A DNA stretch of 29,860 nucleotides from a virus (lineage: Duplodnaviria; Heunggongvirae; Uroviricota; Caudoviricetes), in IMG/VR virus record IMGVR_UViG_2703718820_000019. One strand, written 5' to 3'. Of this stretch, positions 1,345 through 1,457 are shown piece after piece; the stretch's first letter is position 1; each line of letters starts with the position of its first letter. The position numbers and the translations under genes are program-made. The notes under the pieces were generated by a model that saw only the letters and a list, made by a program, of their open reading frames with translations, searched no databases and had not been told where the DNA came from.

Positions 1345-1373
1345 TTGACAGTAACCTATTGGTGACTTATATT
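1345..1373 (+). promoter_or_regulatory. Candidate early lytic promoter Pe (sigma70): TTGACA (1345-1350), 17-nt spacer, TATATT (1368-1373)
   Basis: Consensus -35 hexamer, 17-bp spacer and a 5/6 -10 hexamer read directly from the sequence, oriented toward cox. The -35 overlaps the C start codon, consistent with the face-to-face Pe/Pc arrangement of P2-like switches. Confidence 0.55.
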
Positions 1374-1400
1374 CCCGTCAAAAGGTTGTGTATTGGTGAC
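1357..1400. promoter_or_regulatory. Candidate repressor operators: direct repeats TATTGGTGAC at 1357-1366 and 1391-1400 flanking the putative Pe -10
   Basis: Perfect 10-bp direct repeat, 34 bp centre to centre, flanking the -10 hexamer. P2 C repressor is known to bind two direct repeats flanking the Pe -10 region. Confidence 0.5.
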
Positions 1401-1416
1401 CTTTTGGGTGTGTTAG

Positions 1417-1457
1417 CCAGTCCCTAGAAAGGACAGGGGCGACCTAGAAGGGACTGG
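1417..1457. promoter_or_regulatory. Candidate Cox-box / Pc-region element: direct repeats CCTAGAA(A/G)GGAC (1422-1434, 1442-1454) inside an inverted repeat CCAGTCCC...GGGACTGG (1417-1424 / 1450-1457)
   Basis: Repeat symmetry read directly from the sequence, located between the putative Pe and the cox start where the lysogenic promoter Pc and Cox binding sites lie in P2-like phages. Confidence 0.3.

Follow-up and report, generated by a model that had tools for sequence, protein, structure and literature searches.

The immunity switch of phage WΦ (Peduovirus Wphi), which belongs to immunity class III (PMC3448106), has already been characterized; experiments carried out years ago located its promoters and the repeats bound by its repressor. 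The WΦ C repressor is a dimer that bends DNA (PMC1904263). It acts on two half-sites of 10 bp, which are located 34 bp apart on either side of the −10 hexamer of the early promoter Pe (PMC1904268) and for which a center-to-center distance of 34 nt has also been given (PMC1904263). The half-site O1 reads TATTGGTGAC and was altered with the mutagenic primer GCATTTGACAGTAACC[...]TTATATTCCCGTCAAAAGG (PMC1904263). Conversion of O1 to CGCCAACAGT led to a loss of repression in vivo, with C still binding to the other half-site in vitro; repression was kept when the O1-O2 spacing was shortened by 6 or 10 nt (PMC1904263). Repression is also lost when both half-sites carry point mutations (PMC1904268). 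The transcripts from Pe and from the opposing promoter Pc overlap by 82 nt, and the distance from O2 to the Pc start is 60 nt (PMC1904263). According to PMC5009727, which cites Ahlgren-Berg 2009, WΦ Cox makes no use of P2 cox-boxes; its target is a direct repeat of 12 nt within the Pe-Pc region.

Several other switches provide points of comparison. In P2, the C half-sites are 8 bp long (GTTTAGAT) and 22 bp apart, with O2 located 3 nt after the −10 hexamer, and a single half-site is not bound by C. The P2 transcripts overlap by approximately 35 nt, and P2 Cox uses multiple 9-bp cox-boxes (i.e., TTAAA(G/C)NC(A/C)). The P2 C-repressor family has been described as recognizing direct repeats (PMC2995052). 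P2 Hy dis likewise has a small C repressor that acts on two direct-repeat half-sites at Pe, but these half-sites (8 bp, with a spacing of 26 bp) lie on either side of the −35 hexamer and not of the −10 hexamer (PMC1904268). The promoters of phage 186 also face each other, and its Cox-like protein, Apl, is both lytic repressor and excisionase; its CI repressor (approximately 190 aa, with a C-terminal oligomerization domain) differs in using inverted repeats and distal sites and in forming a 14-mer wheel, and CII is needed for establishment. In lambda, both repressors compete for shared dyad-symmetric operators between divergent promoters.

Here, we describe the switch carried by a 29,860-nucleotide stretch of viral DNA (referred to as the window, which denotes the whole stretch analyzed; all positions are counted from its first letter). 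There is little room for doubt that the interval 1040-1780 controls the choice between lysis and lysogeny in a P2-like prophage of the WΦ type (immunity class III), and nothing in the evidence contradicts this reading. The C and cox genes, Pe, O1, O2, the 12-nt repeats, and Pc are all nucleotide-identical to those of WΦ, and the window reproduces the published 34-nt spacing, 82-nt overlap, and O1 sequence exactly. For the WΦ sequence, the literature shows which bases are the operators, how far apart they lie, where the transcripts start, and that C represses. With P2, the locus shares a small HTH C repressor, Cox, face-to-face Pe and Pc promoters, and two direct-repeat half-sites that flank the Pe −10 hexamer with O1 in the spacer; it differs from P2 in the length, sequence, and spacing of the half-sites, in the longer transcript overlap, and in the sites attributed to Cox. 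A 186-type switch was rejected, as the repressor here is only 97 aa long and the operators are direct repeats (186 features are described in PMC1904263). A lambda-type switch was also rejected, as Pe and Pc are convergent here, and the half-sites of C and the probable sites of Cox are distinct, nonpalindromic repeats.

A WΦ-type control region in a mosaic P2-like prophage

The genes that delimit the prophage and its control region, together with the one position at which the latter departs from WΦ, are listed below.

1-1011, − strand: integrase gene, from the ORF listing
1051-1344, − strand: C repressor gene, an ORF of 97 aa that is nucleotide-identical to WΦ c
1407, + strand: G1407, the sole mismatch to WΦ within 1040-1780 (A in WΦ)
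1497-1769, + strand: cox gene, an ORF of 90 aa that is identical to WΦ cox
27964-28218: ogr, followed by a GC-rich hairpin
28940-29860: host-type cation-efflux gene (Pfam Cation_efflux and ZT_dimer)

Across 1040-1780, the window and phage WΦ (AJ245959 and AY135739/NC_005056) share 99.9% identity, with 1 base differing in 741, and approximately 20 further phage records match the same interval at 99.9% identity. The 221-nt switch is present in 260 of the 5426 complete Escherichia coli genomes, as a single copy in each and in the chromosome in all of them. An exact class III copy is absent from the species-representative genome collection, in which the relatives have C proteins of at most 69% identity. 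Class III copies (C proteins 99 to 100% identical) differ from one another at only a few positions of the spacer.

The remaining parts of the window are those of a mosaic P2-like prophage, approximately 97% identical to several Peduovirus genomes, and not of WΦ itself. Since a host cation-efflux gene lies beyond ogr, we consider the window to be an integrated prophage that extends from the int stop codon to past the right attachment site. Replication gene A and the portal gene are separated by a single ORF of notable size (5764-6252), which encodes a 162-aa protein with ASCH/DUF3850 and DUF7415 domains. It occupies a variable slot that carries tin/old in P2.

The C and cox genes are divergent, with a spacer of 152 nt between the two ORFs. 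The C protein has a Pfam HTH_3 domain, shares 46% identity with P2 C, and matches the known structures of the latter (2xcj/2l49) at an E value of 4.5e-25. Cox was assigned to Pfam Phage_Cox (PF10743; E value, 9.4e-24); cox is the first early gene, and its product would act as the Pc repressor and as an excision directionality factor. The ORF that follows cox had no Pfam hit.

Alignment of 1300-1520 to WΦ places the single difference, G1407, 7 nt past the end of O2 and within none of the elements of the switch. This position is A in WΦ and in all of the IMG/VR class III copies examined, and no 100% match over 1300-1520 was found among the phage records or the complete E. coli genomes. G1407 looks like a private substitution, one that also appears to be silent.

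Face-to-face Pe and Pc promoters

The WΦ record AJ245959 annotates c, cox, and two promoter features, which correspond to 1343-1379 (+ strand) and 1461-1497 (− strand) of the window.

1345-1350, + strand: Pe −35 hexamer TTGACA, abutting the C start codon (CAT at 1342-1344); the AJ245959 feature 1757-1793 equals window 1343-1379
1368-1373, + strand: Pe −10 hexamer TATATT, separated from the −35 hexamer by a 17-nt spacer
1461-1497, − strand: Pc promoter; the AJ245959 feature 1875-1911 (− strand), with an identical sequence here

A promoter scan returned Pe as the sole promoter-like hit in 1000-2000, with 11 of the 12 consensus positions matched. Pc comprises a −35 hexamer, TTGATT (1497-1492), a 17-nt spacer, and a −10 hexamer, TGTTAC (1474-1469), and its agreement with the consensus at only 7 of 12 positions indicates that it is weak. 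The Pc −35 hexamer overlaps the A of the cox ATG. With the Pe −35 hexamer abutting the C start and the Pc −35 hexamer overlapping the cox start, the layout is mirror symmetric and face to face.

On the basis of the published 82-nt overlap and 60-nt distance and of the AJ245959 features, we infer, to within 1 nt, that the Pe transcript starts at about 1380 and the Pc transcript at about 1461; these positions reproduce both published figures exactly. A GATC (Dam) site at 1457-1460 (Pc +2 to +5) lies inside a CTGGATC motif and is kept in 18 of the 19 aligned switch sequences.

C operators O1 and O2

Two perfect copies of the WΦ half-site are located around the Pe −10 hexamer, 34 bp apart from start to start, and they are the only two perfect copies of TATTGGTGAC in the 29.9-kb window.

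1357-1366, + strand: half-site O1, TATTGGTGAC, inside the Pe spacer; the mutagenic primer of PMC1904263 matches window 1341-1386
1391-1400, + strand: half-site O2, TATTGGTGAC, at approximately +12 to +21 of the Pe transcript

The preliminary description, which was made from the sequence alone and covered 1345-1457, so that Pc fell just beyond it, had proposed a TTGACA-17 nt-TATATT promoter and, in its spacer and just downstream of its −10 hexamer, a perfect 10-bp direct repeat. The promoter is present as described, and so is the repeat with its copy in the spacer; the second copy does not follow the −10 hexamer immediately and starts 18 nt after its end. The further proposal that these repeats are heteroimmune C operators, arranged as in P2 with another sequence and spacing, is borne out by the published O1 mutant and by the half-sites 34 bp apart (PMC1904263 and PMC1904268). 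Transcript starts elsewhere or a lack of repressor binding had been named as observations that would speak against it, and the published data on C and on the start sites show the opposite.

The relatives of C that we collected from GTDB genomes and IMG/VR allowed the switch regions to be compared. Among the class III copies, natural variants of the half-site alter its first two bases only: CATTGGTGAC (L041), TGTTGGTGAC (L029), and AATTGGTGAC (L059). This confinement hints that the essential operator core may be the 8-bp sequence TTGGTGAC.

The orientation of O2 also varies among the relatives. The window, L098, and L004 have direct O2 copies of the O1 sequence. In six others (L067, L075, L082, L083, L086, and L088), the sequence at the O2 position is a better inverted copy (10/12) than direct copy (7 to 9/12) of the sequence at the O1 position. 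L004 (direct) and L075 (inverted) have a common O1 sequence, CTGACTTAATGAC, with O2 in opposite orientations.

Twelve-nucleotide direct repeats as candidate Cox sites

A second direct repeat, CCTAGAA(A/G)GGAC, is located nearer to cox. Its two copies are 11/12 identical and 20 bp apart, and they occupy +8 to +39 of the Pc transcript.

1423-1434, + strand: copy 1 of the 12-nt direct repeat, CCTAGAAAGGAC, a probable Cox recognition site
1443-1454, + strand: copy 2 of the 12-nt direct repeat, CCTAGAAGGGAC, a probable Cox recognition site

Since CCTAGAA(A/G)GGAC is the only 12-nt repeat in the spacer, we assigned it as the published WΦ Cox repeat; the 12-nt repeat recognized by Cox is thus probably the one at 1423-1454. 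Both copies, and an inverted repeat enclosing them, had been noted beforehand and tentatively attributed to Cox or to the Pc region. The copies and the inverted repeat were found, each arm of the latter being one base longer than first written, and the attribution fits the 12-nt WΦ Cox repeat as given in PMC5009727. The only further copy detected in the window was a match with 2 mismatches at 28552-28563, which is at the level expected by chance.

Four relatives (L073, L076, L078, and L082) are mosaics in this respect. Their Cox proteins are 90 to 94% identical to that of the window, and they have the same Pc side, on which the second repeat reads CTTAGAA(G/A)GGAC. In contrast, C is only approximately 70% identical in these loci, and their O1 and O2 sequences differ. 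The retention of the Pc side and of the second repeat with a similar Cox, despite different C proteins and operators, shows that the right-hand repeats travel with cox and not with C, and in the mosaic relatives a recombination boundary separates O2 from the 12-nt repeats (approximately 1407-1416 of the window). On this comparison of relatives, the 12-nt repeats belong to the cox module, as is predicted for a Cox site. In the relatives with a Cox of 90 to 94% identity, the first 12-nt copy is degenerate (approximately 9/12 by eye). Two intact copies may thus not be strictly required, or the specificity of Cox may be slightly different in those relatives.

Inverted repeats in the transcript overlap

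Two inverted repeats, designated HP1 and HP2, make up almost the whole of the 82-nt overlap of the Pe and Pc transcripts.

1379-1386 and 1399-1406: HP1, CAAAAGGT / ACCTTTTG, which flanks O2 on both sides and starts where the Pe transcript does
1417-1425 and 1449-1457: HP2, CCAGTCCCT / AGGGACTGG, which encloses both of the 12-nt repeats

The arms of HP2 (9 nt, 100% complementary) extend from +5 to +45 of the Pc transcript, beginning 4 nt past the Pc start. HP1 and HP2, which emerged from the comparison of heteroimmune relatives, are the only possibly new point of this study; no mention of these structures was found in the accessible literature, to which the primary papers (Liu & Haggard-Ljungquist 1999 and Ahlgren-Berg 2009) do not belong.

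Their presence raises an alternative to the Cox reading, namely, that 1417-1457 acts mainly as an RNA structure, instead of or besides being a Cox site, and that HP1 and HP2 are the 5′ stem-loops of the Pe and Pc mRNAs. Such stem-loops could stabilize the transcripts or mediate antisense pairing over the 82-nt overlap. We regard this alternative as possible but rather unlikely. When treated as RNA, the overlap forms exactly two hairpins in either sense. The fold in the Pc sense is more stable than expected (z = −3.4 to −3.7; at z = −3.7, 0 of 200 shuffles fold as well), but that in the Pe sense is not significant (z = −1.0). Both HP1 and HP2 are foldable in all of the heteroimmune relatives (19 of 19), with loops that vary in sequence. 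A perfect inverted repeat of 8 bp also lies beside the Pc start of P2 itself (L002, 1433-1458).

The arms of HP2 covary. We observed the arm variants CCAGTC/GACTGG, CCAGCC/GGCTGG, CCAACC/GGTTGG, CCAGAC/GTCTGG, and CCATCC/GGATAG, with three types of Watson-Crick pair at positions 4 and 5. Because MAFFT alignment of the trimmed region misplaced gaps within the arms, pairs were counted by a script in an end-anchored register; at arm positions 4 to 9, 71 of the 102 variable cells were Watson-Crick paired, compared with 20 to 37 in slid registers and 51.7 ± 3.6 after shuffling of partners (0 of 2000 shuffles reached 71). Covariation of this kind within an inverted repeat is, however, equally expected from a dyad-symmetric protein site, and neither the asymmetry between G-U and A-C pairs nor the folding energies per strand, which were mixed, singled out one strand. 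The two repeats may act as DNA, through a dyad protein site or through bending, as well as at the RNA level. RNAalifold, applied to the MAFFT alignment of the 19 heteroimmune switches, returned only the HP1 hairpin (1379-1406), with a nearly invariant stem and almost no covariation. We ascribe this result to the invariance of the core stem (AAAGGT/ACCTTT), which varies so little that it yields no covariation signal, and to the poor alignment of the second region. An RNA role for HP1 is also disfavored by the published deletions of 6 or 10 nt between the Pe start and O2, which remove its 5′ arm and cause no significant change in CAT expression or in repression by C (PMC1904263).

A role of the hairpins as terminators was discarded: scanning of the spacer detected nothing resembling a terminator, and no U run follows either stem by eye.

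A broader proposal is that the 82-nt overlap is a conserved pair of structured elements and that it forms a functional RNA layer kept across immunity classes. We advance this proposal tentatively, with more doubt than conviction, from the comparison of relatives. Under it, the stems would be kept (with compensatory changes in the case of HP2), while the loops would carry the class-specific O2 and Cox sites. For 1417-1457 itself, recognition of the 12-nt repeats by Cox is the reading that we prefer.

Auxiliary, distal, and chance repeats

It is very improbable that the CCTAGAA..GGAC repeats are auxiliary sites for the C repressor or for a host factor (e.g., IHF) and not Cox sites. The authors of PMC1904263 consider secondary C sites very unlikely, given the one shifted band obtained with operators that have only one half-site. 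The repeats bear no resemblance to TATTGGTGAC, they co-occur in the mosaic relatives with the type of Cox and not with that of C, and PMC5009727 gives a 12-nt direct repeat of the Pe-Pc region to Cox.

The reading of the repeats as chance or neutral features of an intergenic region of mixed AT/GC content, with the true operators elsewhere (e.g., distal, as in phage 186), has next to no credibility and is already refuted, since mutation of the O1 and O2 sites themselves abolishes repression (PMC1904263 and PMC1904268). Such repeats rarely arise in shuffled sequences. When the 152-nt intergenic region was shuffled 2000 times, direct repeats of 10 nt or more appeared in 8 of the shuffled sequences, 12-nt repeats with no more than 1 mismatch in 32, inverted repeats of 9 nt or longer in 48, and promoters scoring 11/12 or better in 4; all of the features initially described are thus unlikely to have arisen by chance. 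What favors distal sites is that the window is somewhat enriched in copies of TATTGGTGAC carrying no more than 1 mismatch (8, of which 2 are perfect, versus 1.67 expected). One of these, the one-mismatch copy TATTTGTGAC at 1188-1197, lies within the C gene and precedes O1 by 169 bp. The other one-mismatch copies are at 11074, 19102, 19537, 21366, and 22206 (six in total with that at 1188-1197). We dropped distal operators because none of the one-mismatch copies is paired, and the WΦ authors concluded likewise: their search of the WΦ genome found only unpaired sites with 1 to 2 mismatches, and long-range effects were judged unlikely. O1 and O2 are the C operators of the switch.

Discussion

Overall, the locus would operate as the published P2-type bistable switch. 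The strong Pe promoter (start at approximately 1380) would read rightward into cox and the weak Pc promoter (start at approximately 1461) leftward into C. Dimers of C would occupy O1, which lies within the spacer of Pe, and O2, which lies at approximately +12 to +21 and 34 bp (i.e., three helical turns) away from O1; they would bend the DNA and shut off Pe; for WΦ, both half-sites were shown to be needed in vivo (PMC1904263 and PMC1904268). Cox, the first early product, would bind the imperfect CCTAGAA(A/G)GGAC repeat just downstream of the Pc start and shut off Pc, and the phage would then be committed to lytic growth.

As stated, the finding matters little, in that an experimentally dissected, textbook-level phage switch was re-identified from raw sequence; it shows that the model behind the preliminary description is able to recognize operator and promoter logic. 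For the prophage, the assignment is of practical use. Typed as WΦ-immune (class III), it is predicted to confer superinfection immunity against phages of the WΦ class and not against P2. Sensitivity to derepression by satellite P4 is also predicted, by analogy with WΦ.

For the P2 family, two points may extend beyond this prophage. The inverted O2 copies in some of the relatives could refine how the P2-family repressors, which have been described as nonpalindromic direct-repeat binders, read their sites. The conserved and covarying inverted repeats, in turn, could reveal a contribution of RNA structure to the switch. If this is true, the hairpins could determine how stable the mRNAs are, or they could mediate sense/antisense (kissing-loop) interference of the early with the lysogenic transcript, and an RNA layer would be added to a switch that has so far been described as two repressors and promoter interference.
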